Source of the DNA: Squalus acanthias
Lineage: Eukaryota
Direction: 5' to 3'
DNA: 64,000 nt
Assembly (NCBI GenBank): GCA_030390025.1
Contig: CM059431.1
Location: forward strand, 126,668,001 to 126,732,000
Below, piece after piece: positions 24,613-53,025 of the stretch (within the stretch, counting starts at the first letter, position 1; each line of letters starts with the position of its first letter). The notes below the pieces were generated by a model. That model saw only the letters and a list, made by a program, of their open reading frames with translations. It was not told the DNA's origin and did not search any database. The position numbers and the translations under genes were made by a program.

Positions 24613-25745
24613 TGCAAAGGAATAAGCCATATAACCTATTCAGAAAAATACACTATCTTATGAAAGAATTTTGGCCTTATTAAACCATGACAAACTGGGT
24701 TTGGGAATTTAGAAACCTAACTATAAAAAAGCTGTGAAAGCATTCTGGCTATTGAGATAAGGTAGTTGTTGACCCTGAATAAATAACCTTATTGAAACAG
24801 AAGGCTAAAGGCTCCGACAGACTGAACTTTTTGGAACAAAACAATGGTTCACCATGGATAAGGTGTTCTAATTTACACCTCGTAAAGAAGCACAAACATC
24901 TACCTTCGTAAAAATGACATCAAGTAAAAAACACACCTGCCGTCACACCATTTTTTATGGTAAACTTAGAACACCTAGAGAGGAGACATGATTCTGTAAT
25001 GCTACCAGCTGATCTGGCAGTAAGAATTGCAGAGGTCAGCAGAAAAATGACTAGAGATAATTAGCTTGCATCAGCAGAAAACTTTAAAGGAAATACCACT
25101 GGAAAAGGGTATAAATATTGAACTCAAATGGGATAGTAGACTCGCTTTAATCGGGCAAAGCGATTCACGGCTTCAGAGGTGGCTCTGTAAGTCTCCAACT
25201 CTTTGTACCTCAGGGATCAAAGGTATTTGATTTTGGTGGATATCCTGTAGAACACTAAGAAATGTAAAACTGTAGCAAAGTTAAGATTTGAGAGTAAGGT
25301 TCTCTGATAATAAGATTGTAAAGCTTTCTCTTTTTGGAATTGTTAATGTTGCTATTGACTCACCAACTGTAAATTACATGTCGGTTCTTTAATAAATCTA
25401 TATATTTTTAGAATTGTCTCACATAAGACTTCTTTATCAAAAACTCGCAAACTCAATCTCTGTACACTCTTTGGTGAGGAGTTGCAGAATTCTGGGAGAG
25501 TTTTCCGGACCCTCATAATATCCGGAATGTTACAGTCTAGCTAAACTTATTAAAAGTGCTATCTAGAGGACGGTAACATTTTCAGGTTGTTCCTTTCCTT
25601 TAGGGAGAGATAGTCCGGACCTTTAGACCCAATTAAGCGTCTTTAGGATTCGGCTACCTCAAACTTTAGTTGAAAGTGAACGTCTGCGAAATACGCCTAA
25701 TCCGGGGTAGCCCTAAAGGGGCTAAGACTAGTAATTATCCCTTCA
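24613..25745 (+). mobile_element. Solo LTR of a foamy-like endogenous retrovirus (1133 bp), related to but distinct from the provirus LTRs
   Basis: TG...GTAATTATCCCTTCA end identical to the provirus LTR end; GGGG TSD (24609-24612, 25746-25749); TATAAA 25110, GTAAGT 25187, AATAAA 25391. Confidence 0.92.
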
Positions 25746-27168
25746 GGGGATTCGGTCATGGTAATGCCTTTGAATGTCAAGGGGCAGTGGTTAGACTCTC
25801 TCCTGTTGGAGACAGTCATTGACTGGCACTTGTGTGGCGCAAATGATACCTGCCACTTATCAGCCCAAGCCTGAATATCGTCCAGATCTTGCTGCATGCG
25901 GGCATGGGCTGCTTCATTGTCTGAGGAGTTGCAAATGGAAGTTAACACTGTGCAATCATCAGCGATCATCCCCACTTCTGATCCTATGATGGAGGGAAGG
26001 TCATTGATGAAGCAGCTGAAGATGGTTGGGCCTAGAACACTGCCTTGAGGAACTTCTGCAGCGATGTCCTGGGGCTGAGATGACTGGCTTCCAACAACCA
26101 CAACCATCTTCCTTTGTGCTAGGTATGACTCCAGCCAGTGGAGAGTTTTCCCCGTTATTCTCATTGACTTCAATTTTACTAGGGCTCTTTGATGTCACAT
26201 TCGGTCAAATGCTGCCTTGATGTCAAGGGCAGTCACTCTCACCTCACCTCTGGAATTCAGCTCTTTCGTCCATGTTTGGACCAAGGCTGTAATGAGGTCT
26301 GGAGCCAAGTGGTCCTGGCGGAACACAAACAGAGCATCAGTGAGCAGGTTATTGGTGAGTAAGTGCTGCTTGATAGCACTGTCAACAAAACCTTCCATCA
26401 CTTTGTTGATGATTGAGAATAGACTGATGGGGCGGTAATTGGTCGGTTTGGATCTGTCCTGCTTTTTGTGGACAGGACACACCTGGGTAGTTTTCCACAT
26501 TGTCGGGTAGATGCCAGTGTTGTATCTGTACTGGAACATCTGGCTAGAGGCATGGCGCATTCTGGAGCACAAGTCTTCAGTGCAACAGCCGGGATGTTGT
26601 TGGGGCCCATAGCCTTTTCGTATCCAGTATCCTCAGCCGTTTCTTGATATCACGTGGAGTGAATCGAATTGGCTGAAGACTGGCTTCTGTGATGGTGGGG
26701 ACCTCAGGAGGAGGTCGATATGGATCATCCACTCAGCACTTCTGGCTAAAGGTGTTTGCAAACACTTCAGCCTTGTCTTTTGCACTCGTGCTGGGCTTCA
26801 CCATCATTGAGGATGGGGATGTTCATGGAGCCTCCTCCTCCTGTTAGTTGTTTAATTGTCCACCACCATTCATGACTGGATGTGGCAGAATGGCAGAGCT
26901 TTGACCTGATCCGTTGCCTGTGGGATCGCTTGGCTCTTTCTACAGCATGTATATCGTCCTGTGTTGCAGCTTCACCAGGTTGGCACTTCATTTCTCAGTA
27001 TGCTTGGTGCTGCTCCTGGCATGCTCTTCTACACTCCTCATTGAAGCAGGGTTAGTCCCCTGGCTTGATGGTAATGGTAGAGTCGAGGGATATGCCGACC
27101 ATGAGGTTACACATTGTGGTGGAATACAATTCTGCTGATTCTCATATGCCATTGCAGTCAATCACCAT

Positions 27169-33462: not shown

Positions 33463-33496
33463 TGAAAAGAGAGCTAATATTTTTAATGGGGCGGTC

Positions 33497-34120
33497 CCTA
33501 GGTGAACCGCGTGCACGCTAGATGCTGCGCGCACGCAGCACACTTAGATTTTTTTTCAGGTTTCTACGCGAGGGTAAGTATTAAAGATTCTACGCTAATA
33601 AAAAGGAGGTGTAAGACCCCTTTTGAACAAGGTAAGTGGTTAATTAAGTATAATTAAAAAAATTTTCAACAGGTTTATCTTTTTTAGATACTTTAAAGAA
33701 AGGTAAGTTTATTTTTATAACTTTTAAAAAGTATTTTAATTTTTTCTAAAATTTAAATTTTTGTTTAAAGTGGTTAATTTATTTAACTATAGTTATTTTA
33801 TAAATGTGATGTTTTTTTTTAATTTATTTTAAGTTTGGCTGTTCTTTTGGGGCCGATTTCAATTCACAGATTTGACAGATCTCCTGTCAAATCTATGAAT
33901 GAAAGATGGTCTGCTGCCATTGGCTCTCCATGGCCCACGTGATCCCAGGGGTCGCATCGCACTAACTGCGCCCTGGAACACGCAAGCACTGCGCGCCAGC
34001 TCTTGGGAGAGGCCCAGGACCCGAAGTTCCTGTGGGCCCAAAACACAACGGCAGGCGCGGTGGGTAAGAGCGCGCGCGATCCTTACCCCCGCGGCAAGCC
34101 GGCCACGCGAATTTCTAGGC
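33497..34120 (-). mobile_element. Harbinger-type MITE, truncated inverted copy of 34333-35096
   Basis: Reverse-complement similarity to 34340-34960; terminus AATTTCTAGGCC. Confidence 0.8.
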
Positions 34121-34332
34121 CATCGTATCTTTCAGCCTTTCCACAGATCGTTTGGGTAACAAACATACCTGTTAAAACCCACTGGCTGACACAATAAATG
34201 TAGAGGCAGGAAACCAAGTCTGTGGCCAAGAGATGGAGAAGTGAAATAATCAAACACCCACATGGAGATGAAATCGGATGATTAAATTAGTAACAAGATA
34301 ACTGCATTTAAAATTAAATTAAAAGATATATT

Positions 34333-35096
34333 GGCCCAGAAATTAGGCTCCCTGGCTTCCCGCGGGTGCAATGATCACACGCGCACCTACCTACTGCGCC
34401 TGCCGTTGACCTCTAGGCCCACGGGGACTTCAGCTCCTGGGCCTCCTGCAGCAGCCGGCGCGCAGTGCTTGTGTATCCCAGGGGTGTAGTTAGTGCGATG
34501 TGTCCCCTGGGATCATGTGGGCCATGGAGAGCCAATGGCAGCAGACCATCTTTCATTCATAGATTTGACAGACCTGTCAAATCTATGAATTGAAATCGGC
34601 CCCAAAACAACACCTAAACTTCAAATATTTTTTTTTTAAAAACCATCACATTTTTAAAATAACTATAAGTTAAATAAATTAACTACTTTAAACAAAAATT
34701 TTAATTTTTGTCAAAATTAAAATACTTTTTAACAGTGCTAAAAATAAACTTACCTTTCTTTAAAGTATCTAAAAAAGATAAACCTGTTGAAAAAGTTTTT
34801 AAATTGTAATTAATTAACCACTTACCTTGTAAAAAAACGGGTCTTGCACCTCCTTTTTAAAAGCGCAGCTTCTTCCATACTTACCTTCCCGGAGAAACCT
34901 GAAAAAAACCCTAAGTTCGCTGCATGCGCGCAGCCTCTCCCACGCACGCGGTTCATCTCTGAACCACTCCCTTCACGAAACCGGAAGTTCCGTTTTCCCG
35001 CGCATGCACAGTACATGCAGGAAACCGGCACTTCAGGAGGCCTTACGGGTGAGTACACAGCGCGTACTCACCCAGCAAGTGCCTAATTTCTGGCCC
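34333..35096 (+). mobile_element. Harbinger-type MITE inserted in CR1
   Basis: TIRs GGCCCAGAAATTAGGC / GCCTAATTTCTGGCCC; flanks ATT/AAT; subterminal sequence shared with the end of the element at 54578-57816. Confidence 0.85.
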
Positions 35097-35445
35097 AATA
35101 AATAAACTAATGAAACTTAAAGAGGATAAAACCCCTGGTCCGGATGGATTATATCCGTGCATTTTAAAAGAATCTAGGGAAGAGATTGTAGAGGCATTAC
35201 TACACATATTTAGAAATTTGTTAGAAAAAGGTGTAGTGCCATGTGGACTGGCGGACAGCTAACATAATATCTATATTTAAGAAGGGCGATAGAACATGTC
35301 CAGGGAACTATAGATCAGTCAGCTTAACATCGGTGGTAGGAAAAATAATGGAATCCCTACTAAAGGAGAAAATAGAAGAACATCTAAAAAGCAAAAATAT
35401 AATAATGAATAGTCAGCATGGATTTCAAAAGGGAAAGCTTTGTTT

Positions 35446-36930
35446 TGTAATAAGATAAACCATATTCCAAGAAATACATCATCCTATGCACAGATTTTGA
35501 TAATATTAATACATGACATACTGGGTTTAAAAGTCTGGAAAGCCTCGGCGACACAGGCTGCAAACACAATACATGCTTCTGAGATAAGATGGATTGTTAA
35601 CACAAAGCTGTGAAAACAAGCTTTGAAATGGGAATTGGTTTGTAAATACAGAGACAAAGCCCCTTTTGAAGCAAACCATTGGTGCTTCCAGAATGTCTAG
35701 AGTTTGGAACAAAACAATAGCAATGCCCAAGTAAAGTGTCAAAATCTAACACATCGAACAGGTGCACAGAACATTAAAAAAAACAAGTGCCTTTGAAATA
35801 ATGACATCAAGTAAAAGAAATACCTGCCGTAAAATAGTTTTATGTTAAACTTAGAAACAGGAAACACAATTAAATATGCAACCAATTGAAATAGCTAAGA
35901 AATACAAAAAACACCCTGGTTGAAGTGTTTTTGATTTACAAGTTGTAAAAGGTACAAATAGGAAGACTTTGAAAATATAATATCAATAGATGACAAGAAG
36001 CAATTACATTGTGTTTGTATTGAACTTGGAACACCATGGAGTCATGACGTCTGGCTTACAAGCAGTTAAGTGATATTAAGAATTCAATAGAAAGACTTCC
36101 TAAGAATAGCATCAAATAGATAAATCGACAATAATCATAAAAATGATAAGTTTTCGAAACACCGAAAGGTAGAGACAGAATTCTAAAAGTTGACAACTGA
36201 AATGACAGTAAGAATAGAAAAGAATTCAATAAAGAATCACTAGAGATAATTAGATTACATCAGCAGGAAACATCAAAGAAAATACCACTAAAAAAAGGTA
36301 TAAAAATAGAGCTTTTCAGATAGAGAGTCAGAAGTCACTGGAAGGGCAAGCGTTTCTCAACTTCACAGGCATACTCTGTAAGTTTTCAACTCTGAGTCTC
36401 GGAAAATCAAGGTATTTGATTTTGGTGGATATTCTGGATTAAGAAATAAGTAGAAGTGTGGAAATGTAACAAATTTAAGATTTGACAATAAGGATCTCTG
36501 ATAAGAAATGTAAACTATTTGTATTTTGAACGGTTAAAGTCGCGATTGACTTATCAGCTGTGAACTGAATGTCGGCTCTTAAATAAATCTATATATTTTT
36601 AGAATTGTATCAAGTTGTATTTCTGTATCAACCTCGCAAACTCAATTTCTGTAAACTCTTCAGAGAGGAGTTGCAGAATTCTGGAGGGTTTTCCAGACCC
36701 TCATAATATCCGGAAGGTTACAGTCTAGTTAAACTTATTAAAAGTGCTATCCGGAGGACGGTAACATCTTCAGGCCGTTTCTTTCCTTTAGGGAGAGATA
36801 GTCTGAACTTTAGACCCAATTAAACGTCTTTAGGATTCGGCTACCGCTAACTTTAGTTGAAAGTGAATGTCTGGGCTTACGCCTGATCTGGGGTAGTCCG
36901 AAAGGGCTAGGACTTGTAATTATCCCTTCA
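35446..36930 (+). repeat. 5' LTR (1485 bp)
   Basis: TGTAA...CCTTCA; direct repeat of 41938-43423; TATAAAA 36299-36305, splice donor GTAAGT 36378, AATAAA 36582-36587. Confidence 0.97.
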
Positions 36931-36932
36931 GT

Positions 36933-36950
36933 TGGTGCCCAACGTGTGTG
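36933..36950 (+). promoter_or_regulatory. Primer-binding site, tRNA-Lys1,2-like
   Basis: TGGTGCCCAACGTGTGTG versus canonical TGGCGCCCAACGTGGGGC; begins 2 nt after the LTR end. Confidence 0.9.
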
Positions 36951-37193: not shown

Positions 37194-37718
37194 ATGGCAA
37201 ACCCTGTCGGAATTGACCAAGTCTTTTTATTAGGAAATTCAAATGATTGTTTTATTAGGGGAAATAATCCTATCCCTGTACCTCCACAAAACCAAGTGAT
37301 AATTTTTGTAATAGAAGGCTTTGAAGCCGAAGAAGCTGTTAGAACTCAAGGCATGATTAATGTTGATCCCCAGAACCAGGGGATACAGAATATCCAGTGA
37401 GATAATCCAAAAAATACTCCAAATCCACTAAATTCCTTAATGATAAGGTGCACACCTGCACAATTGGGAGGCCTAATGAAAGGTGCTCAACAAGGTGATG
37501 ACAACCATGGGCGAATAGCAGGACCCGGAGCAGCCTATGCTCCTGGGGGCCATGGATTCCGGTTAACGTGGCAAGCTCATGATGAAATAAATGACCAGAA
37601 TCTTCGAGAAAACTATGGACAGCTTAGAATCCATATAATAAACGGTCTGACAAACCCCCTAAGGGATCTGGAAAACATAATACCCTCAAGAGGGAGGAAC
37701 AAAAATCAGTTAAAATAA
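37194..37718 (+). pseudogene. gag: gag N-terminal domain remnant (foamy-type); internal TGA, C-terminal part missing
   Basis: ORFs 37194-37400 and 37440-37718 share one frame; first gene after the PBS; distant resemblance by eye to the prototype foamy virus (PFV) Gag N-terminus (NPIPVPPQNQVIIFVIEG, NPLNSLMI, LRIHIING). Confidence 0.65.
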
Positions 37719-37719
37719 T

Positions 37720-40700
37720 TAAAGACAATGCAGCAAATGAAGCTCAGGATCCTGAGGATGAGCAATCCCAGGATTGGAGGCCTGGCACCCAGCCAGGGCC
37801 TCTTGAATTCCCCTTTGCATTGACAAACTTGTCCACAAATACACAAGTGAAGGCCCTGTTTGATACGGGGGCTGATTACACTGTAATAGATCCTGCAATT
37901 ATAAAAACTAAGTGGACAGGTTTGGGAAGTCCAATTTGTAAAAAACCATTAGGGGGATTCACACAAGACGAAAGCAAAATAATAATTTTTTACAAAATAA
38001 CTATTACTATATATGGAATAACGGTGACCCTAGATGTAGGACTGGTACCACAATTGTCCTGTACCCTCATTATAGGACAACCAGACATGCAACATTACCT
38101 TAAAATTTCAACCAAACCTGTAGAAGCATCCACAGACCAGGATGACAGGGAAAATCATGTTCGAACACAGCTTGATCGAACTTGCCTAGAGGGGGGAGGT
38201 AAAGACCTCCTCGAGAAACTAATAAATAAATACTACCCGTATCTACAACGCCATCCAAATCAATGTGGAAAGATAGACATCAAACCCCACCCCCTTGATG
38301 CTGGCTGGCACAAGCCTAAAAAACAGTGACCTATTCAAGACCACAAAGGAAAAATAGATCTCCTAACAACGCTCAAAGAACTAACAGAACAAGGTGCCTT
38401 AATCAAAATGGCATCTAGAACTAATTCACCATTGTTTGGTGTTGCTAAACCAGATGGGAGGTGGAGATTAGTGGTCGATTATACAGCCTTAAATAAGGTA
38501 ACAGCCCCACATACTGCACAACAGCAAAATTCCACAGCCCTTCTCTCTGGAGTCACGAGGGAAAAATATAAATCTTGTATTGATCTAGCAAACGGCTTCT
38601 GGTCACATCCAATCGAAAAAGCTGATTGGCCAAAAACAGCGATGACCGGACCCGATGGTCATCAGCACTGCTGGACCAGATTGCCCCAGGGATTTCAAAA
38701 CAGCCCCGTTCTCTTTTCAGCCCACATCATTGACCTTTTAAAAGACCTACCTAACGTCAATTCTTATGTGGACGATATATATCTGTCACATGACAATCTC
38801 CAAGAGCACTTGAAAGCCATTGATAGTGTTTTATCCAGACTTACAACTGCTGGGTACTTAATCAACATAAAAAAGAGTCAACTAGTTCAGGAAGAGGTAG
38901 ATTTTCTGGGCCTGCGAATAACTGGAAACAGTAGAGGATTAACTCAATCCTATAAAGAAAAATTAGCCACCATTCAATATCCTAAAACTCTGAAAAATCT
39001 GCAAGCCAGTTTAGGACTTCTGAATTTTGCTCGATCCTTCACGCCAACCTTTGCCGAGCTCTCAGCCCCCCTGTATGCTAGAGTGGGCGATGCAGCAAAA
39101 GGACCATTCATATTTTCACCAGACGATTACTCAAAATTGCAACAATTATGCCGAGAGGTACAAAAAGCCATAGACCTGGAACAGAGAGACCTACAAGTTC
39201 CCCTCAATATTCATCTCAGGTCATCACCTAAAGTAGCAGTTGCAGTTTTTTACAATGAAAAGAGCATAGTGCCCATTCAGTTCCATTCTTATAACTTTTC
39301 CAATGTCGAAAGGAGGTACATTAAAAAAGAAAGGGTCATGACTATGGTAATCCAATGCCTCATCAAGGCACGAACCCTTCCAGGGAAATACCGCATTACC
39401 ATTTATACTGAGATTCCCGATTTAAGATCAGTATTGAGGATGGCTTCTGATGAAAAAAGAGCCACCCAGATCTGATATGATAAATGGGCATCATTCTTGA
39501 ATGATCCTGCACTCATTTTTAAATTCCTCTCCCCGGAAATGGACTTAGAGCATCTCCCCATAATGGAGGATGATGATACTGAGGAGGGAATCAGACAAAT
39601 ACCTATGAGACCGCTTACAGAATACGATCAAGTTATTTACTGTGATGGATCGTCAATGACGATTAAGAAAGAGACATCCCAACAATCGTCAGCTGGGATG
39701 GGGATAGTAGTAGGGACTTTTCAAGATTCCTATTCTTTTTATCCAGAAGAATTACTGTCTATACCCCTTGGCCATAAGACAGCACAATATGCTGAAGCCG
39801 CAGCATTACAATATGCTTTAGAAAAGCTAGACCCTATTAAACCCATACTAATCTGCACGGATTAGTAAACGATTACTACTGTAAAAGAGGATATAACCAA
39901 GATCTAGTTTTCTGGGAACAAACAAATTTTACCAATCATAAGGGTAAACCCATAAAACATAAGTCATTGTGGGAAGATATTCTCCGTTCCAGAATGGAGA
40001 AAAATAATTGTCAGGTGTTTCATGTAAACGGGCATACCACTGGGACAGTACACTCAAAAGGAAACAGCCTTGCAGACGAACAAGCGAAACATTCGGTCTG
40101 CATGACACCCCCTCGAGAGGGGCCTGCCAATGTTAGTGTAATCACTAGGGCAGAATGGGCAGCTAATCAGGATGACAAACTGATTCAGCTATTAGACCCA
40201 ACACAAGAGAATCCACCAGGATATCCACCAAAGTACTCTTACTCGGAAACCCCTATGGGTATTGTACTAGTTAAGTTGCCCAAGGGAAATCGAGAAGTAA
40301 CCCGAGCCACAAACGAGAACAGCTTGTAAAAGAACCTCACGAGGGCATAAGTTAAGCACATTGTGGTGCCAGAAGAACATTCTGCAAATTGACCCCCTTA
40401 TATTGGTGGCCAGGCATGCTTAAAGCCTGTAAAACATACGTGGCAAATTGTGAGCCATGCTATTTGACCAATAAGTCATCACTAATTAAGCCACCACCAT
40501 TGGCTCCTGTGAAAGCTGAAGAGCCAATGGGAAAATTCGTTTGTGTGGATGGATGCACTTCCTTTTGCTGGTTGATCCCCACAAAAACTGTTTCGGAAAA
40601 CGCACTTGCCAGGGCTATTTCTGATATAATTACTGTAGCTGGTGCACCCAAAATCTTACACTCCGATCAAGGTGGAGCCTTTGTATCCAAGGTCTTCAAA

Positions 40701-41300
40701 GACTACTGCGAACAAAGGGGGATTGGCTTAGAGCACAGCACGCCACGTCATCTGCAATCAGCGGGGCTGGTGGAACGTAAAAACCAGGAAGTAAAAAAGC
40801 TATTGGTCAAACTGTTGAGAATCAGGGGGAATAAGTGGACCACCATCATTCTGGAGGTGTAGCTATCACTCAATAATGTGCCCACATCTGCATCAGGGAC
40901 AGTGTCCCCTAAAACTCCATATTATCTAATGTATGGGGTTGAGATGCATACACCGCTTACCCATAGTTCTTTTATTGCCTCTACAGACTCTGAGTCCTTG
41001 ACCCGACAGCGACAGTTAGATTTTAAAAAAGAAGTAACAGAGGAGATTCATCGAATTGATCAGAGGATAAGGGAGGCGAATAGGCAGAAAAAATTGACAA
41101 ATAAAGCATGGCAACCCATAGTAGGAGAATGGGTACAGGAAAAGAAGTTCAAGCAGAAACCTGGTTTAAGACCGCAGTGGAAAAAACCTGTTCAAATACA
41201 TTCTGTTATTAATGAAAGAATAGTTCAAATACATGTTAACCAGCCGAATGGCAAGCATATTCTTAAAACTGTCTCCATAGACAATATCAAGAGATGTCCT
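37720..41300 (+). pseudogene. pol: pol (protease, RT, RNase H, integrase) of foamy type, with stops, two frameshifts and an in-frame deletion
   Basis: PR LFDTGA; RT KPDGRWRLVVDY, DLANGFWSHPI, WTRLPQGFQNSP, YVDDIYLSHD; RH YCDGS, AQYAE, GNSLAD; IN GYPPKYSY, YWWPGM...CEPC, HSDQG, VERKN, LRPQWKKP, TVSIDNIK. Confidence 0.95.
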
Positions 41301-41927
41301 GCAGGATACCGAAAAGGAGGAATACAAGGTGCAGTTGTACACTGTCTTTTAAGACCCAGCTTGGAGCACGACACAGGAAATGGATGCGATCGAATTACTG
41401 ACGATGGAAAGTCAGAAGGTGTCGTCGGCTCTTCTACACGTTGCTTGGCAACGCATCAGGAATTGGATTTGCGAAAAGCAACAGCCGAAACAAGGAAAGA
41501 TCAACGAGTTACTTTAACGAAGGAGGAAGACATCGCGGATAAAGAAGGAATCAACTGAGTGCCCCGCAAGGCCTTTACGAATACAAGCATCTGTACACAC
41601 ACCGGATCGAAAGAACAGCGTGTCGAGCTTCAACTAGTTTCAAATGACGTCTCCTTGACTCGTATGAAGAACTCACCTCTACGGAACGTACATCTGCCGA
41701 TTGGACATTCTAAGTACATGTTGTTTCGCTCATTACATGACTATGTACTTATCATCCTTTTAAATTGTGTACAATTTAAAATAAGGCAAAACATTGTCCC
41801 AGGATGATTTAAAAGGAATTTTCATGTCGCACATGATTGTGCATATAGTGAACTTAATATGCTATTGTAACCTTATGAGTACCATTGACCAAACTCTGCC
41901 CTGATTTTATAAGCTCATCTTTTGGTC

Positions 41928-41937
41928 AAGAGCGGGG
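41928..41937 (+). promoter_or_regulatory. 3' polypurine tract
   Basis: AAGAGCGGGG directly abutting the TG of the 3' LTR. Confidence 0.8.
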
Positions 41938-43423
41938 TGTAATGGAATAAACCATATTCTAAGAAATACATCATCCTATGAACAGATTTTGATAATATTA
42001 ATACATGATATACTGGGTTTAAAAGTCTGGAAAGCCTCGGTGACACAGGCTGCAAACACAATACAGGCTTCTGAGATAAGATGGTTTGTTAACACAAAGC
42101 TGTGAAAACAAGCTTTGAAATGGGAATTGGTTTGTAAATACAGAGACAAAGCCCCTTTTGAAGCAAACCATTGGTTCTTCCAGAATGTCTAGAGTTTGGA
42201 ACAAAACAATAGCAATGCCCAAGTAAAGTGTCAAAATCTAACACGTCGAACAGGTGCACAGAACATTAAAAAAAACATGTGCCTTTGAAATAATGACATC
42301 AAGTAAAAGAAATACCTGCCATAAAATAGTTTTATGTTAAACTTAGAAACAGGAAACACAATTAAATATGCAACCAATTGAAATAGCTAAGAAATGCAAA
42401 AAACACCCTGGTTGAAGTGTTTTTGATTTACAAGTTGTAAAAGGTACAAATAGGAAGGCTTTGAAAATATAATATCAATAGATGACACCAAGCAATTACA
42501 TTGTGTTTGTATTGAACGTGGAACACCACGGAGTCAAGACGTCTGGCTTACAAGCAGTTAAGTGATATTAAGAATTCAATAGAAAGACTTCCTAAGAATA
42601 GCATCAAATAGATAAATCGACAATAATCATAAAAATGATAAGTTTTTGAAACACCTAAAGGTAGAGACAGAATTCTAAAAGTTGGCAGCTGAAATGACAG
42701 TAAGAATAGAAAATAATTCAATAAAGAATCACTAGAGATAATTAGCTTACATCAGCAAGAAACTTCAAAGAAAATACCACTAAAAAAAGGTATAAAAATA
42801 GAGCTTTTCAGATAGAGAGTCAGAAGTCGCTGGAAGGGCAAGCGTTTCTCAACTTCACAGGCACGCTCTGTAAGTTTTCAACTCTGAGTCTCGGGTAATC
42901 AAGGTATTTGATTTCGGTTGATATTCTGGATTAAGCAATAAGTAGAAGTGTGGAAATGTAATGAAATTAAGATTTGAGAATAAGGATCTCTGATAAGAAA
43001 TGTAAGCTATTTGTATTTTGAACGGTTAAAGTCGCAATTGACTTATCAGCTGTTAACTGAATGTCGGCTCTTAAATAAATCTATATATTTTTAGAATTGT
43101 CTCATGTAGTATTTCTTTATCAACCTTGCAAACTCAATTTCTGTACACACTTCAGAGAGGAGTTGCAGAATTCTGGGGGGTTTTCCGGACCCTCATAATA
43201 TCCAGAAGGTTACAGTCTAGTTAAACTTATTAGAAGTGCTATCCGGAGGACGGTAACATCTTCAGGCTGTTTCTTTCCTTTAGGGAGAGGTAGTCTGAAC
43301 TTTAGTCCCAATTAAGCATCTCTAGGATTTGGCTACCGCTAACTTTAGTTGAAGATGAACATCTGGGGAATACGCCTGATCTGGGGTAGTCCAAAAGGGC
43401 TAGGACTTGTAATTATCCCTTCA
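41938..43423 (+). repeat. 3' LTR (1486 bp)
   Basis: TGTAA...CCTTCA followed by GTTT; TATAAAA 42791-42797; AATAAA 43074-43079. Confidence 0.97.
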
Positions 43424-45499
43424 GTTTGACCAACCTAAATTAATTTTTTGAAGAGGTAACAGAGAGAATAGACAAGGGTAATGTAGTAGATGTAATTTAT
43501 CTCGATTTTCAAAAGACCTTTGATAAGGTACCACATAATAGACTAATGAATAAGGTCAGGGAATGTGGAGCCGGGGACAAGTATCAGAATGGATAGCTAG
43601 CTGGCTTCAAGACAGAAAGCAGAGAGTAGGCGTAAAGGGTAGCTATTCAGAGTGGCAGAAGTTGGGAAGTGGCGTTCTGCAAGGATCAGTGCTGGGACCA
43701 CTGTTGTTCACAATTTATATTAACAATTTAGACTTTGGAATCAAAAACACAATTCCTAAATTTGCGGACGACATCAAATTGGGGGGGATAACAATACTGA
43801 GGAGGACTGCAACAAATTACAAGAAGACATTAATAAACTTGCACAATGGGCATATAATTGACAAATGAAATTCAACACAGATAAATGTGAGGTATTACAT
43901 TTTGGTAAAGAAAAATAGGGAGGTCACATATTACTTGGAAAATAAGAATCTAAAAGAGGTAGAGGAGCAAAGGGATCTCGGAGTACAAATACACAAATTA
44001 CTAAAAGTATTGACACAGGTTAACAAGGCCATATAAAAAAAGCAAACCAAGCACTCGGGTTTATTTCTGGAAGGATAGAATTGAAAAGTAGTGAAGTTAT
44101 GCTAAACTTGTATCAAACCGTGGTTAGACCATACTTGGAGTACTGCATACAATTCTGGTCGCCATATTATAAAAAGGATATAGAGGCACTGGAGAAGGTG
44201 CAGAGAAGATTTACAAGGATGGTACCAGAAATGCGAGGGTGTACTTATCAGGAAAGGATGAACGGGCTGGGTCTCTTTTTTCACTTCAAAAGAGAAGACT
44301 GAGGGGCGACCTAATAGAGGTCTTTAAAATCATGAAAGGATTTGATAGAGTAGATACAGAGAGAGTGTTTCCACCGGGGAAGAGCAAAACTAGAAGCCAT
44401 CAATATAAGATAGTCACCAAGAAATCAAATAGGGAATTCAGAAGAAATTTCTTACCCAGAGAGTGGTGAGAATGTGGAGCTCGCTACCACATGGAGTGGT
44501 TGAAGCGAATAGTATAGATGCATTTAAGGGGTGGTTAGATGAGCATATGAGGGAGAAGGGAATAGAGCGTTATGCTGATAGAGTTATATGAGGAAAGACG
44601 GGAGGAGGCTCGAGTGGAGCATAAATGCCGGCATGGACTGGTTAGGCTGAATGGCCTGTTTCTGTGCTGTATATCCTATGTAATCCTATGCAACTTACCA
44701 CTTCAGGACACCCACCTCATAATTGCAACATGCCTGAAAGAAATCAGATGAAGAGACACTGAGGGCACAGTTAACCATTACTGCCTCTGACAGCGCCAGC
44801 CCTTTAGTGCATGTTCACTCCAAGTATTTTCTATCAGCATATGCTATGTGGCTGTCTGCTGATTCAGAGCTTGTGCAACCAGTTCCGCATAACCACTGCC
44901 AGTTACACACACCTCTACTTGTGACTGGGGATGGGAGGGCACTGGCAGATGGGTGTAGGTTGCCTCAGGTATAGTTTGACATTGCCTGACATTGCTCCTG
45001 CTATTACTTCAAAAAACATAAGTAAAGGGGTATTCCAATTGGAAAACCCATTGTCCAAATATCATGGACAAACACAAAAATGGCAGTACCAGAACACAGC
45101 ATAAAGCCTCCTGACCAACTAAGCGGAACAAAAAATAATTTTAAAAAGCAAAACCGATGCAGAAATAGCTTTAAAATGCTGCATATAATATTAATCTTTA
45201 ACTGGACTCCCATAAACTTTACACCCTTGCAGCCCTGGATGGCCATTTTATAAGGATGAGTGGATGACTGAACACAATGCGCTGGTGTAAGACTTGAAAT
45301 TGTGTGGGCATCTAAATAGCATAATTGGTGTCTAATTTTACTATAATTAACTGCAATCTGGTGGGTGTTTCTGGCTCCAGTACAAAATGCGACCAATTAC
45401 ATAGAATATATAGCACAGAAACTATCACAGACCATCCTTTTGTTCTTCCCTCTCCTCTCCCCTTTCCCTGACTCTGTACTTGCTTAAAAACTGTTACAT

Positions 45500-46856: not shown

Positions 46857-47711
46857 GGCTGGGATCTTACCTGAAGAGGCACGTTGGGGGCGGGACTGCT
46901 GCCACGACGTCCAACGCACAGACGCTATTTTGCATCAATTGGCCTTGTTAAGCCTGCCCTGCGGGCTTGCTGGCCAATTAAGAGAAAGCCGGTGTCAGAT
47001 GACGTCAGTTGATGACGCGTCATCTGCCAGTTTTCTTAAAGGGGCCACGACCATTTCTTTTTGACAGATTATTTTTTCAGTGTTTGACAGCATTGAGGTG
47101 CTGCAAACACTGACAATCACTGTACAAAGCTGAGCACTTGCACCCAGGCTCTCCAGTGACTCTCTCAATAGGTTAAAAGAGATGGCATCTGCAGGTGAGG
47201 TTACAGAAGTGATCTGTCACTGGTGAGAGAGGTTCTCCCAATGAGATGGGATTACACAAACACTTCAAAGCTTGTCACATACAGAAAATTCTAAACACAT
47301 TAAAAATGACTTTCCCAACATTTTCTTACCTCTGCAACTCACCAGTGTCCCATTGGATCCTTCACACCACTTCTGCAGCTGTCATCTATACACAAACATT
47401 ACAGTAGACCCACAGCATGCCACACTTACCCTGGAGGGGTTTCCCGACGTTGGGAAGCCCACAGTAGAAGTGTCAAAATTGGAAAAAGCCTCTTAACTGC
47501 CTGTTAACTGCCTGTTAACAAGCAGTTAAGTGGCTATAATCCTCTTCCCACGGCTAGGAGTCGGGTCCCGGTGCAAATCGGGGACCCGACTCCCGGGAAG
47601 ATTGATTGGAGGCGGGTTGGAAGCGGGTTTGGGACCCGCTGCCAATCTTTTTGATTTTGCCAGCAGTCCCGCCTCCAAACCCGACCCCTGAGCGCCGGCA
47701 AAATCGCCCCT
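46857..47711. mobile_element. Harbinger-like MITE inserted in a Penelope terminal repeat
   Basis: GTT on both sides; removal restores CGACCTGACACGTTAACTCTG; homologous to 3451-4277. Confidence 0.75.
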
Positions 47712-50700
47712 GTTAACTCTGTTTCTCTCTCCACAGATGCTGCCTGAGCATTTCCAGAATTTTCTCTTTTTAGTTCAGATTTCCAGCATCCGCAGTATTT
47801 TGCTTTCATATTAGTTTTTAAGTCACTGCCATTTCTCTTCCAGGAATGCCCATTTGCTCTTCTCTCCAACGGGATTTCTGTTTATCACTTTTACCATATT
47901 CACCTTCATTGCTATTCCGTTTCCCTTCTTGTGTTTGATAAACTATCTGCTAAAACTCGGTTTCACAGCCACATCTCGTTCCTCAGCAACTGTCTCCGGC
48001 ACCCTTTCTGTTGTCTTCCAAATTCCCGTTCCACCTTGACCACACCATCTGGTCACTTACCCTCTCTAGATTTTTTCATTGAGAAAGGCTAGAATGACAT
48101 TGGCTGTCTCAATTTCTATACTCACCTCTCACTCTAACCTACCTCCTTCTGAACTTACAGCGTTCTGTTCTCTCCAGTCCAACCCTAACAATGTGATTAC
48201 ACCCGCTGGCAAGTGTGGCGCTGTTATTGTTTTGCGAACGGAGCTCTACCTTGTGGAGGTTGAATGTCAACTCTCCGACACCTCCTCCTACCTCCCCCTA
48301 AACCATGACTCCACCACCGAACATCAAGCCATCATTTCCCATGCCGTCACTGACCTCATCTCCTCTGGAGATATTCCCCACATGGCCTCCAACCTCATAA
48401 TCCCCCAACTCTACACAACCCATTTCTTCCACCTTCCCAAGATCCACAAACAGGACGACCCTAGTAGACCGATCTTTCCAGCCTGTTCTTGACCCACAGA
48501 ACCTACTTATTTCACTCTCAACTCAATTTTTTTCTCCCCTTGTCCACTCTCTTCCCACCTATATCCACGACACTTCCAACAGTTTCCATATTCCTGGCCC
48601 TAACTGTCTTCTTTTCGTCATGGATGTCCAGTCCCTCTACAACTCCATCCCCCACTAGAATGGCCTCTGGGCCCTATGCTTCTTCCTTGAATGGAAGCCC
48701 AACCAGTCCCCATCCATTACCACCTTCCTGCACCTGGCTGAACTTGTTCTTACATTGAACAACTTCTCCTTTGACTCTATTCAATTCCTCCAAATAAAAG
48801 ATGTTGCTATGGGAAAACATATGAGTCCTAGCTATGCCTGCCTTTTTGTGGGATACGTGGAACATAGAGGAGTACAGAAAGTGCAGGGGTGCAATTCAAA
48901 ATGATATTAGGCAAGCAAAGAGAGAGAATGAAAAATTCTTGACAAGTAAAATCAAGGAAAACCCAAAAATGTTTTATAGATATATTATGAGGAAGAGGAT
49001 AACTAAAGAAAGGGTAGGGCCTATTAGAGATCATGAGGGTAATCTGTGTGTGGAGGCGGGAGACGTCAGTAGGGTTCTTAATGAATACTTTGCGTCTGTT
49101 TTCACAAAGGAGAGGGGCGAAGCAGACATTGCTATCGGGAGGGGGAGGAGTGTGAAATATTAGATGAAATAAACATAGTGAGAGAGGAAGTATTAAGGGG
49201 TTTAGCAGCTTTAAAAGTGGATAAATTCCCAGGCCCGGATGAAATGTATCCCAGGCTGTTAAGCGAAGCAAAGGAGGAAATAGCAGAGGTCCTGACGATC
49301 ATTTTTCAATCCTCTCTGGCTTCAGGTGTGGTGCTGGAGGACTGGAGGACTGCTAATGTGGTACCCTGGTTTAAAAAGGGAGAAAAGGATAGACCGAGTA
49401 ATTACAGGCCAGTCAGCCTAACCTCGGTGGTGGGAAAATTATTGGAAAGAATTCTGAAGGACAGGATAAATCTTCATTTAGAAAGACATGGATTAATCAA
49501 GGATAGTCAGCACGGATTTGTTAAGGGAAGGTCGTGTCTGACAAACTTGATTGAATTTTTTGAGGAGGTAACAAGGAGGGTAGATGAGGGTAGTGCATTT
49601 GATGTAGTGTATATGGACTTTAGCAAGGCTTTTGATAAGGTTCCACATGGCAGACTGGTCACGAAGTTAAAAGCCCATGGAATCCAAGGCAAAGTGTCAA
49701 GTTGGATTCAAAACTGGCTCGGAGGCAGGAAGCAGAGGTTAATGGTTGATGGGCGTTTTTGTGACTGGAAGGCTGCTTCCAGTGGGCTTCCGCAGGGCTC
49801 AGTACTATGTCCCTTGCTTTTTGTGGTATATATCAATGATCTAGACTTGAATATAGGGGGTATGATTAAGAAATTTGCAGGTGATACTAAAATCAGCTGT
49901 GTGGTTGATACTGAAGAAGGAAGCTGTAGACTGCAGGAAGATATCAATAAATTGGTTAGGTGGGCAGAACAGTGGCAATTGGAATTCAATTCGGAGAAGT
50001 GTGAGGTAATACATTTGGGGAGGGCTAACAAGGAATGGGAATACACATTAAATGGTAGGACACTGAGTAGTGTAGAGGAACAAAGGGACCTTGGAGTGCA
50101 TGTCCACAGATCCCTGAAGGTAGCAGGCCAAGTAGATAAGGTGTTTAAGAAGGCATACGGAATACTTGCCTTTATTAGCCGTGGCATAGAATACAAGAGC
50201 AGGGGGGTTATGCTTCAACTGTATAAAACACTAGTTAGGCCTCAGCTAGAGTACTGTGTGCAGTTCTGGTCATCACATTACAGGAAAGATGAGATTGCAC
50301 CAGAGAGGGAACAGTGGAGATTTACAAGGATGTTGCCGGGAGTAGAGAAGCTTAGCTATGAGGAAAGACTGGATAGGCTGGGTCTGTTTTCCTTGGAACA
50401 GAGGAGGTTGTGGGGAAACCTTATTGAGGCGCATAAAATTATGAGGGGCATAGATAAAGTGGATAGAAAGGACCTATTTCACTTCACAGAGGGGTCAAAA
50501 ACCAGCGGGCACAGTTTTAAAGTAATTGGGGGAAGGTTTAGAGGGGATTTGAGGGGACCCAGAGGGTTGTGTGGCTCTGGAACTCACTGCCTGAAAGGGG
50601 GTAGAGGCAGGAACCCTAACCACATTTAAAAAGTACTTGGATGTGCACTTGGGATGCTCTAACCTGCAGGGCTACGGACCAAGAGCTGGGAAGTGGGATT

Positions 50701-52090
50701 AGGCTGATAGCTCTTTGTTGGCCGGTGCTGACACAATGGGCCGAAATGGCCTCCTTCCGTGCTGTAACTTTCTATGATTCTATGATTCTTTGTTCCAGTC
50801 TTACACAGGTCGCCTCTCTCACTTTTTGTTCGGTACATTGATGACTGTATTGGTGCCACTTCCTGATCTCGCCCCGAACTGCAAAATGTCATCAACTTTG
50901 CTTTCTATTTCCTCCCTTCCTTCGCCTTCACATGGTCCATCTCCGACTCTTCCCTTCCTCGACTTTTCTATCTCCATTTCTGGGGATAGGCTGTCGACCA
51001 AATCTTCTATAAGCCCAATCTGCCACCTTCCACACCAGTGCTTCCGATATGTCTTCCTTTTTCCTCAACCAAGGATTCCCCTCCACCCTGATTGACAAGG
51101 CCCTCGACTGTGTCCATCCCATTTCCCGCACTTCTGCCCTCACTGCTTCCCCTCCCTCCCAGAACCACGATATGGTTCCCCTTGTCCTCACCTTCATACC
51201 ACCAACTTTCACATTCAACAGATCATCCTTTTTTCCATTTCCACCACCTCCAGCACAATGCCACCACCAAATACTTCTTCCCCTCCCCTCTCCTTTCAAC
51301 ATTCTGAAGGAACTGTTCCCTCTGCGACATGCTGCTCCACTCTTCCATAACCCCCAACACTCCCACGCCTGCCCTTTCACCTCCTCCCTTCCCACTGTCC
51401 AGGGCCACAAGCGCTGCTTCCAGGTGAAACAGTGATTTACTTGTACGTCTTTCAATTTAGTATACTGAATTCGCTGCTCACGATGCGATCTCCTCTACAT
51501 TTTGAAGACCAAATGCAGATTGGGTGATTGCTTTGTTCAAAACCTACAGTTGGTCCGCAAGCATGACCCTGAGCATCCGGTCACTTGCCATTTTAATTCT
51601 CCATCCCACTCCAACTCTCTGCCCTTGGCCTCATACACTGTTCCAATGAAGCTTAACGGAAGCTCGAGGAACAGCACTTCATCTTTCTATTAGACTATTT
51701 ACAACCTTACAAACTCAACACTGTGTTCAAAAATTTCAGATCATATCCACGGCTCCCATTTTTTCAGACAGCAGATCTTTTGTCACCATCTGCAGCTCCT
51801 TTGGACCCATCTTTTGTTTCTTTGCTTGTCCCAGTACCATCCCCTTTTGCCTTGCACCATCATCCCTTTTGTCACTTAATCTCTCCAGCCTTCCACCCTA
51901 TCACAGCCCTTCCCTTTTGTTCTTTCCTCCCCTCCCCCCATTCCCTGCCTCTGTACTTGCTTAAAATCTGTTACCTCTCTAACTTTTTCCAGTTCTAACG
52001 AAAGGTCATCGACCTGACATGTTAACTCTGTTTCTCTCTCCACAGATGTTTCCTGGCCTGTTGAGTATTTCCAGCATTTTCTCTTTTTAT
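47712..52090 (+). mobile_element. Penelope-like element, decayed, interrupted by CR1 48866-50790
   Basis: Homologous to 20375-22748; terminal repeats at both ends. Confidence 0.85.
48866..50790 (+). mobile_element. 5'-truncated CR1 with a long open RT frame (49178-50629)
   Basis: 483-aa CR1 RT; catalytic FADD mutated to FAGD; TTCTATGA tail. Confidence 0.93.
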
Positions 52091-52091
52091 T

Positions 52092-53025
52092 ACCGAAACA
52101 GGCCATTTGGCCCAACCATTCTGTGCTGGTGTTTATACTCCACATGAGTCTCCTCCCATTATATCTGCCTCATTTCAGCCTTTCAGCATATCTTTCTACT
52201 CCTTTTTCCCTCATGTACTCGACTATTTTCCTTTTGAAAGCATCAAAGCTATTTGCCTTAACCACTTCCTGTGGTGGCAAGTTCCACATTCTAACCACTC
52301 TCTTTTGGATTTATTAGTAACTATCTTGTATTTATGGTCCCTAGTTTTAGATTCTCCCACAAGTACAGGTGGATACGTTCTCTCCACATCTACCCTGTCC
52401 AACCCATTCATTATTTTAAAGACCTCAATTAGGTCACTTCTAAGTCTTCTGTTTTCTAAAGAAAAAAACCTAACCTGTTCAATCTTTCCCGATAGCTGGA
52501 ATCTTTCAGTTCTGGTATCATCCTTGTAAATATCTTTTGCACTTTCTCCAGTGCTTCTATGTCCTTTTTATAGTATGGAGACCAGAGCTGTGCACAGTAC
52601 TCTAAGTGCAGCCTAACCAGGCTCCTATACAAGTTTAACATAACTTCACTACTTTTGAATTCAATACCCCTAGATATAAATCTCAGTGCTTTGTTAGCAT
52701 TTTTAATTGATTACTGACCTGTGATGCTGCTTTTAATGATTTGCTCACTTGTATCCCTGGATCCCTTTGCTCATCTACCCCATTCAGTTTCTTATTTTCT
52801 AAGGTGTAAGTGAAGTTTCTATTTTTCCTACTAAAGTGCATCACCTCCCATTCATCTATGTTAAAGTTCATTTGCCACTTAACTGCCCAATGTGCACATT
52901 TTCTAATGTCTTCTTGTATTATGTTGCATTCTTCAGTGTTAGTTTGGTATCATCTGCAAATTTTGATATAGAGTTACTTGTTCCTACGTTCATATCATTA
53001 ATGTAAATTATGAACAACAATGGTG
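52092..53025 (-). mobile_element. Old CR1 3' fragment
   Basis: LNLYRSLVRLHLEYCAQLWSP and related peptides. Confidence 0.8.

Follow-up and report, generated by a model that had tools for sequence, protein, structure and literature searches.

What lies between the end of integrase and the 3′ LTR of a foamy-like provirus that lacks the space for an env gene? In the window, the 64,000-nucleotide stretch of DNA analysed here, pol is followed by about 630 bp (41300-41937) that the initial annotation described as unknown, coding-like sequence and interpreted as what remains of a new accessory or transactivator gene that env loss had joined to pol. Comparison with env-bearing relatives in the same genome leaves little doubt that this segment is the scar of an env deletion in a foamy-like provirus and not a gene. 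Every part of it could be assigned to relatives of the provirus, and it thus no longer counts as unknown. The annotation correctly noted the insufficient space for a foamy env: as the 3′ LTR starts at 41938, no env of 3 kb can fit.

Layout of the provirus and its insertion site

The features of the provirus are compiled in Table 1. Alignment of the two LTRs yields 1427 matches and 69 mismatches (K2P 0.048), and a 4-bp target-site duplication, as found here, is typical of foamy viruses. The LINE that hosts the insertion, which we take to be of the CR1 type, picks up its RT frame again after 43427. The primer binding site is presumably tRNA-Lys-like, a name chosen after the foamy viruses; a tRNA scan of the window returned none. 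Pro-pol matches the Pfam families PF03539, PF00078, PF00075, PF17921, PF00665 and PF18103, with the A9 protease (PF03539) scoring 34.8 bits at a cut-off of 21. The top matches of the RT are foamy-virus Pol proteins with 40-44% identity; the top 12 of 15 matches have the foamy Pol domain set, 11 are named foamy virus, and one RT match is a catshark protein. Judging from the repeats, the host is probably a cartilaginous fish. In the protein tree the RT of the window sits on a long branch, the exact position of which is not firm.

Table 1. Positions of the proviral features in the window
Feature	Position	Strand	Remarks
Target-site duplication, 5′ copy	35442..35445	+	GTTT, 4 bp; within CR1-type LINE
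5′ LTR	35446..36930	+	1485 nt, TG...CA
Primer binding site	36933..36946	+	tRNA-Lys-like, from sequence
gag remnant	37194..37718	+	about 985 nt gone near 37638; same deletion in 14 copies
pro-pol	37799..41291	+	interrupted by stops and frameshifts; spumavirus A9 protease, RT, RNase H, integrase
Integrase SH3 domain, closing pro-pol	41106-41291	+	Pfam
Pol C-terminal tail, overlapping env	41292..41558	+	terminates at TGA 41556
env remnant 1, cytoplasmic N-terminus of Env leader peptide	41314..41587	+	start codon missing; stops 41350, 41515
env remnant 2	41586..41620	+	35 nt from just past the SU/TM furin-like site; in frame with remnant 1; frame stops at TAG 41635
Distal env-to-LTR (accessory) region	41617..41927	+	begins right behind the point where the Cys/His ORF of the relatives stops
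Polypurine tract	41928..41937	+	from sequence; kept in relatives
3′ LTR	41938..43423	+	1486 nt; LTR type amplified in this genome
Target-site duplication, 3′ copy	43424..43427	+	GTTT

The window additionally contains an incomplete LTR, the third of this family, at about 24970-25746 (about 75-90% identity in ungapped blocks). At 33485-34973 we observed a 1.5-kb element of long inverted arms, 77-94% complementary, which resembles a MITE or fold-back element.

Origin of the segment behind pol

A search of the genome with the Pfam model Foamy_virus_ENV (PF03408) yielded 11 matches at six loci, each locus scoring above the cut-off, and DNA searches added two env-bearing loci, giving a total of eight, as well as one locus with post-env DNA only. 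The env-bearing relatives are 84-94% identical to the window in pol and belong to the same family. They are colinear with the window up to 41587 and again from about 41617-41649, with 3.2-4.3 kb extra in between. The join that had been placed at 41300 thus lies within contiguous sequence, and the real join is located approximately 290 nt further on. By this comparison the segment consists of three joined provirus pieces, 41314-41587, 41586-41620 and 41617-41937.

In the relatives the env ORF is in the +1 frame and begins directly behind VSIDNLK. The first piece corresponds to approximately the first 91 codons of env, which encode the leader peptide and overlap the Pol C-terminal tail. The second reading frame described in the initial annotation, DTEKEEYKVQLY...RRRKTSRIKK, is indeed present, with TAA stops at 41350 and 41515 and an end at TAG 41635, and 64 of 103 residues are identical to the first 103 residues of the relatives' Env N-terminus. 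The statement that the segment bears no Env hallmarks is therefore wrong. This frame does lack a hydrophobic segment (best 19-residue Kyte-Doolittle mean 0.68, versus 2.18 in an env-bearing relative), and the basic cluster taken to be NLS-like belongs to the N-terminus of the Env leader peptide and is present in the intact-length env frames of the relatives. Moreover, the Env ORF of a relative runs on into a hydrophobic segment followed by the Foamy_virus_ENV match, and the relatives' N-terminal Env ORF matches Pfam foamy Env with an E value of 2.8e-6. A foamy-type Env with a long leader overlapping the end of pol is thus present in the relatives, and the window has remnants only. A Pfam search of the tail pieces of the window gave nothing significant, and a homologue search with a relative's Env N-terminus gave none at E 0.001, which is weak evidence.

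The 35-nt second piece matches the start of TM at four env-bearing loci with 77-81% identity (blastn against the six-locus database, E 4e-4 to 5e-3), and 41617-41927 is 73-78% identical to seven env-bearing loci. Hence, the scar represents two deletions of about 1.7 kb and 1.4-1.6 kb, with junctions at approximately 41587 and 41620. Junction 1 shows a 2-base overlap; that at junction 2 is longer but imperfect, and the donor side of neither begins with GT. Given these short microhomologies and the lack of GT donors, the junctions likely arose by template switching during reverse transcription. Splicing, raised by the initial annotation in its proposal to look for splice sites at the breakpoints, is not supported as their origin, GT being missing at either donor side, and an origin of the segment from host DNA is rejected because every part maps to the relatives.

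Of the accessory origin proposed for the segment, this much is right: its last approximately 320 nt stem from the env-to-LTR region, the location of accessory genes in foamy viruses; the one clear ORF that the relatives possess in this region, however, is deleted. This Cys/His-rich ORF of 144 codons (L071:2598-3029, minus strand) lies at the tas position. It has no Pfam match, and its closest atlas clusters (0.85-0.86) are labelled BED zinc finger, which is to be read as a lead only. In other relatives the ORF is broken by shared indels, and w is not significantly below 1.

Directly after the env stop of the env-bearing provirus L071 (2930-3030, minus strand) we observed approximately 100 nt belonging to a host repeat of very high abundance; the proviruses L075, L077 and L079 carry this piece as well. 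The repeat piece forms an acceptor-like site, a pyrimidine tract followed by CAG/ATG, before the post-env ORF. The captured piece is SINE-like, and the same motif is found in the window at 47711-47779 and 52020-52096.

An amplified env-less lineage

In the first search, the whole segment adjoined the 3′ LTR in 39 of 39 other scored copies. In a sample of 40 env-less copies, picked by likeness to the window, both junctions are identical in all 40 aligned copies, so the deletion is not private to one copy. An exact 18-mer across junction 1 has 49 matches in the genome (reversed control: 0) and is present in 27 of the 40 sampled copies, which translates into approximately 70 junction-bearing copies. 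The tree splits the 40 env-less from the eight env-bearing copies with a support of 100/100, and the RTs of the four RT-bearing env-less copies form one clade (96/97). The env-less lineage suspected in the initial annotation is therefore borne out by a deletion that is shared, monophyletic and amplified. Contigs carrying five different organism labels (A, B, D, E, F) bridge the junction, indicating that the deletion is older than, or extends across, several host species; for label C there was no bridging piece among the pieces listed.

The alignment of the copies also shows which of the reading frames persist. As described previously, the pol frame continues past TVSIDNIK with TGA stops at 41556 and 41805, the next stop being located at 41868 (about 192 codons). 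This openness, though real in the window, owes something to chance: of the 37 copies with a measurable length (three of the 40 were not measurable), just 17 read through the 95-96 residues between VSIDN and the stop at 41556. Of the env-less copies, 39 of 40 carry this stop, and five of eight env-bearing copies have it in the corresponding position. Beyond 41749 the frame changes in 21 of 40 copies due to a one-base length polymorphism, with the extra base in 19 of 40. In the env frame the start codon is present in all eight env-bearing copies and in two of the 40 env-less copies, and the stops at 41350 and 41515 occur in 34 and 26 of the 40 env-less copies, respectively, versus none of the eight env-bearing copies. 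The acceptor-like AG pointed out at 41304 is present at 41303-41304; shared by 25 of the 40 env-less copies but by none of the eight env-bearing ones, it is a derived, polymorphic site and not ancestral.

Thus, no frame is open with a start across the copies, which share stops and show a length polymorphism. Nor does any frame of the segment appear to be under purifying selection, although all of these counts are small: along the branch leading to the env-less group the three frames of the 3′ piece show w values of 2.9, 1.1 and 3.9, and in quartet counts on real copies w ranged from 0.75-1.05 for the overlap to 1.1-3.9 for the 3′ piece. The junction is also spanned by two contigs from what is only a presumed RNA run, and we do not take them as expression. 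Taken together, these comparisons do not support a novel gene at 41300-41937; the Pol tail up to 41556 is ancestral and plausibly the sole part of the segment that was still translated.

The situation is different for pol itself. Using one divergent env-bearing copy as the only outgroup, with small counts averaged over quartets, nearly all changes separating the two groups map to the env-less stem. On this stem, w is 0.35 for pol of the four RT-bearing copies (Sd 19.1, Nd 17.7, p 0.003) and 0.03 for RT (Sd 5.0, Nd 0.4, p 0.002); for pol of the RT-deleted copies it is 0.61 (p 0.15) and for gag 0.25, which is not significant (p 0.3). The pS values of the stem are uneven, 0.03-0.04 in gag and RT, 0.07-0.09 in IN and 0.13-0.16 in the scar, a rise that could reflect recurrent recombination with an env-bearing helper.

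Most of the surviving copies are defective. RT is kept in four of the 40 env-less copies, deleted in 26 and unresolved in 10. The middle of gag is missing in 14 copies, including the window, and kept in 10, and one copy keeps both the gag and the RT spans. Recurrent internal deletions delimit subfamilies, corresponding to window positions 38281-39546 (19 copies) and about 37860-39595 (six copies), and further subfamilies share a deletion of 120 nt in RNase H or the 985-nt gag deletion (loci L022-L058).

The copy number becomes apparent from the LTRs. A tag of the window-type LTR has 1,548 exact matches in the genome, compared with eight env-bearing loci found, and does not occur in the tested stretches of env-type LTR; a search with the env SU gave seven candidates at six loci. 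First-look candidate counts of 518, 3113 and 1930 are not copy numbers. All of the 20 top LTR matches are without internal sequence nearby, and 11 of them carry a perfect 4-bp target-site duplication, two a duplication with one mismatch, and seven were not measurable. The LTR type suggests that the solo LTRs all derive from env-less genomes. All 40 scored matches of the window-type LTR are at least 94% identical, whereas the env-type U3 yields only about 25-30 good matches and falls below 80% identity within about 30. The two LTR types are 69-82% identical in their alignable part.

Moreover, window-type LTRs are nested in two env-bearing proviruses, in pol (L071:8094-9533) and in the 3′ LTR (L075:1110-2337), and were consequently active after these proviruses had integrated; at the nested LTR in L071 no clean target duplication was seen. 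The distances between paired LTRs range from 0.015 to 0.051 in 17 env-less copies (median 0.029) and from 0.032 to 0.073 in five env-bearing copies, after three of 20 env-less and one of six env-bearing rows had been dropped owing to other repeats or a nested LTR. The ages of both groups overlap, and env-bearing helpers were therefore available. Applying the rate of 0.5e-9 assumed in the accessible text of PMC10699275 results in a loose estimate of roughly 15-50 million years.

Spread of the lineage and known systems

How did a lineage without env reach such numbers? We consider it fairly probable that two deletions in a foamy-like provirus eliminated about 3 kb of env together with the accessory ORF, that template switching during reverse transcription was the likely cause, and that the env-less genomes then multiplied within germ cells without Env, many defective copies using Gag and Pol of sister copies. 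Both the replication within cells and who supplied proteins to whom are inferred. Because most copies are non-autonomous, intracellular retrotransposition is no more than likely, but intracellular spread ranks first as the most likely route, with helper-driven spread as its main rival. A more far-reaching version, to which we would give slightly less than even chances, is that a foamy virus became a germ-line retrotransposon through one double deletion of Env, the internal-promoter region and the gene at the transactivator position, with a rebuilt LTR, Pol under selection, gag-only and pol-only genomes complementing each other, and at least 1,500 insertions in this genome and more in several related host species. 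If true, this would be the natural counterpart to an intracellular retrotransposition of foamy viruses that has to date been observed with laboratory vectors alone.

Alternatively, the same scar may mark defective genomes that were never self-sufficient but depended on an env-bearing helper virus for their packaging and spread, being complemented in trans whether or not reinfection took part. The accessible text of PMC5512871 puts forward such a helper mechanism for foamy-like ERVs of teleosts, and it would accommodate that 36 of 40 copies are without RT in the retrieved stretch, that the deletion took the 3′ region of env and the Cys/His ORF, where by position the internal promoter and the transactivator would lie, that the low stem divergence in gag and RT is compatible with recombination with a helper, and that the LTR ages of the two groups overlap. 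We nevertheless regard it as unlikely, since just eight env-bearing loci were found compared with about 1,500 LTRs, the env-less RTs form their own clade under purifying selection, the LTR types differ strongly, and the window-type LTRs nested in two env-bearing proviruses were active later.

The two remaining alternatives assign a function to the segment. Junction 1 preserves the env frame, and the fusion of leader peptide and TM could have been kept early as a small functional protein, either binding Gag or acting as a dominant-negative mini-Env. In line with this, the N-terminus of the PFV Env leader binds Gag (accessible text of PMC3185757), and in contigs of other organisms the stop at 41515 is absent from 82-99% of the depth in six of eight runs, while part of the depth retains the start codon. 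However, this depth mixes env-bearing and env-less copies, an in-frame join is expected by chance in one of three cases, and in this genome 38 of the 40 copies lack the start, one copy in 40 is free of both stops, none of the 40 retains the acceptor-like CAG upstream, and w of the env frame on the env-less stem is 0.8, which together render this option very improbable. Marginally less probable still is a new accessory or transactivator gene attached to the end of pol. It can draw on the origin of 41617-41927 from the accessory region, on the relatives' homologous frame, which is stop-free over 61-97 codons and extends into U3 like bel2, and on an 82-codon open run kept in the window. The frame featured in its favour is Env, though, which refutes the proposal for 41300-41620 by a match to env, an outcome the initial annotation itself had named as contrary to it; the 3′ piece has neither a start nor a known promoter and bears shared stops and the length polymorphism. 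Purifying selection is seen in no frame, neither in env-less copies nor between env-bearing strains, where w in the post-env region is 0.77, 1.64 and 1.33 and in no frame significantly below 1. We therefore retain the env-deletion scar with probable spread within germ cells.

Spread within cells agrees with the biology of exogenous foamy viruses, the capsids of which assemble within the cell, require Env for exit and reverse-transcribe without Env, as stated in the accessible texts of PMC3185757 and PMC3705263. With env-deficient PFV, reverse-transcribing capsids build up and retrotransposition occurs in cells, and the natural occurrence of foamy intracellular retrotransposition is left open in the accessible text of this review (PMC3185757). 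Among the routes by which ERVs spread, PMC8922424 names, in its accessible part, reinfection, retrotransposition in cis and complementation. The present family provides a natural experiment, with an env-bearing parent and env-less derivatives of foamy-like elements in one genome and a deletion mapped to the base, and it makes natural foamy intracellular retrotransposition testable by phylogenetics.

The window family shares with exogenous foamy viruses (simian, prototype and equine FV) the A9 protease, an RT of 40-44% identity, the SH3 end of integrase, the 4-bp target-site duplication, the long LTR and, in its env-bearing relatives, the Pfam foamy Env. Likewise, five of 12 FV Pol matches have a Q-N/D-G run behind VSIDNLK, as do the env-bearing relatives. 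It differs from them in a Pol tail of about 96 residues from VSIDN compared with 21-44 in FV, in the lack of an intact gene in the window, in the deletion of env and the accessory ORF, and in the long branch in the RT tree. Among endogenous elements, CFEFV (J Virol 2023) is reportedly a foamy-like element of fish. In the papers covered by a literature search, this env-less clade was not found described; the supplements of PMC10699275 may hold a related shark element. Endogenous foamy viruses are called rare in the accessible text of PMC10581153. CmiFLERV, ERV-Spuma.0-Sca and the teleost FLERVs are likewise endogenous foamy-like elements of fishes (PMC5512871, PMC5210030, PMC10699275); compared by description and not by sequence, none is described in the accessible parts of these texts as an env-deleted, amplified clade beside env-bearing parents.

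Loss of env followed by amplification is already known in other ERVs, and the surprise is accordingly limited. Magiorkinis and colleagues (2012) are said to have termed env-less ERVs ‘genomic superspreaders’. MuERV-L likewise combines a shared env loss with an excess in copy number (accessible text of PMC5930517). In contrast to MuERV-L and these ‘superspreaders’, the present family stems from a virus with a true foamy-type protease and Env, and most of its surviving copies are non-autonomous. The closest parallel in behaviour is offered by env-deficient PFV vectors, in which an env-less foamy genome re-integrates (accessible texts of PMC3185757 and PMC3705263); these are laboratory constructs, whereas the family described here is a natural one.
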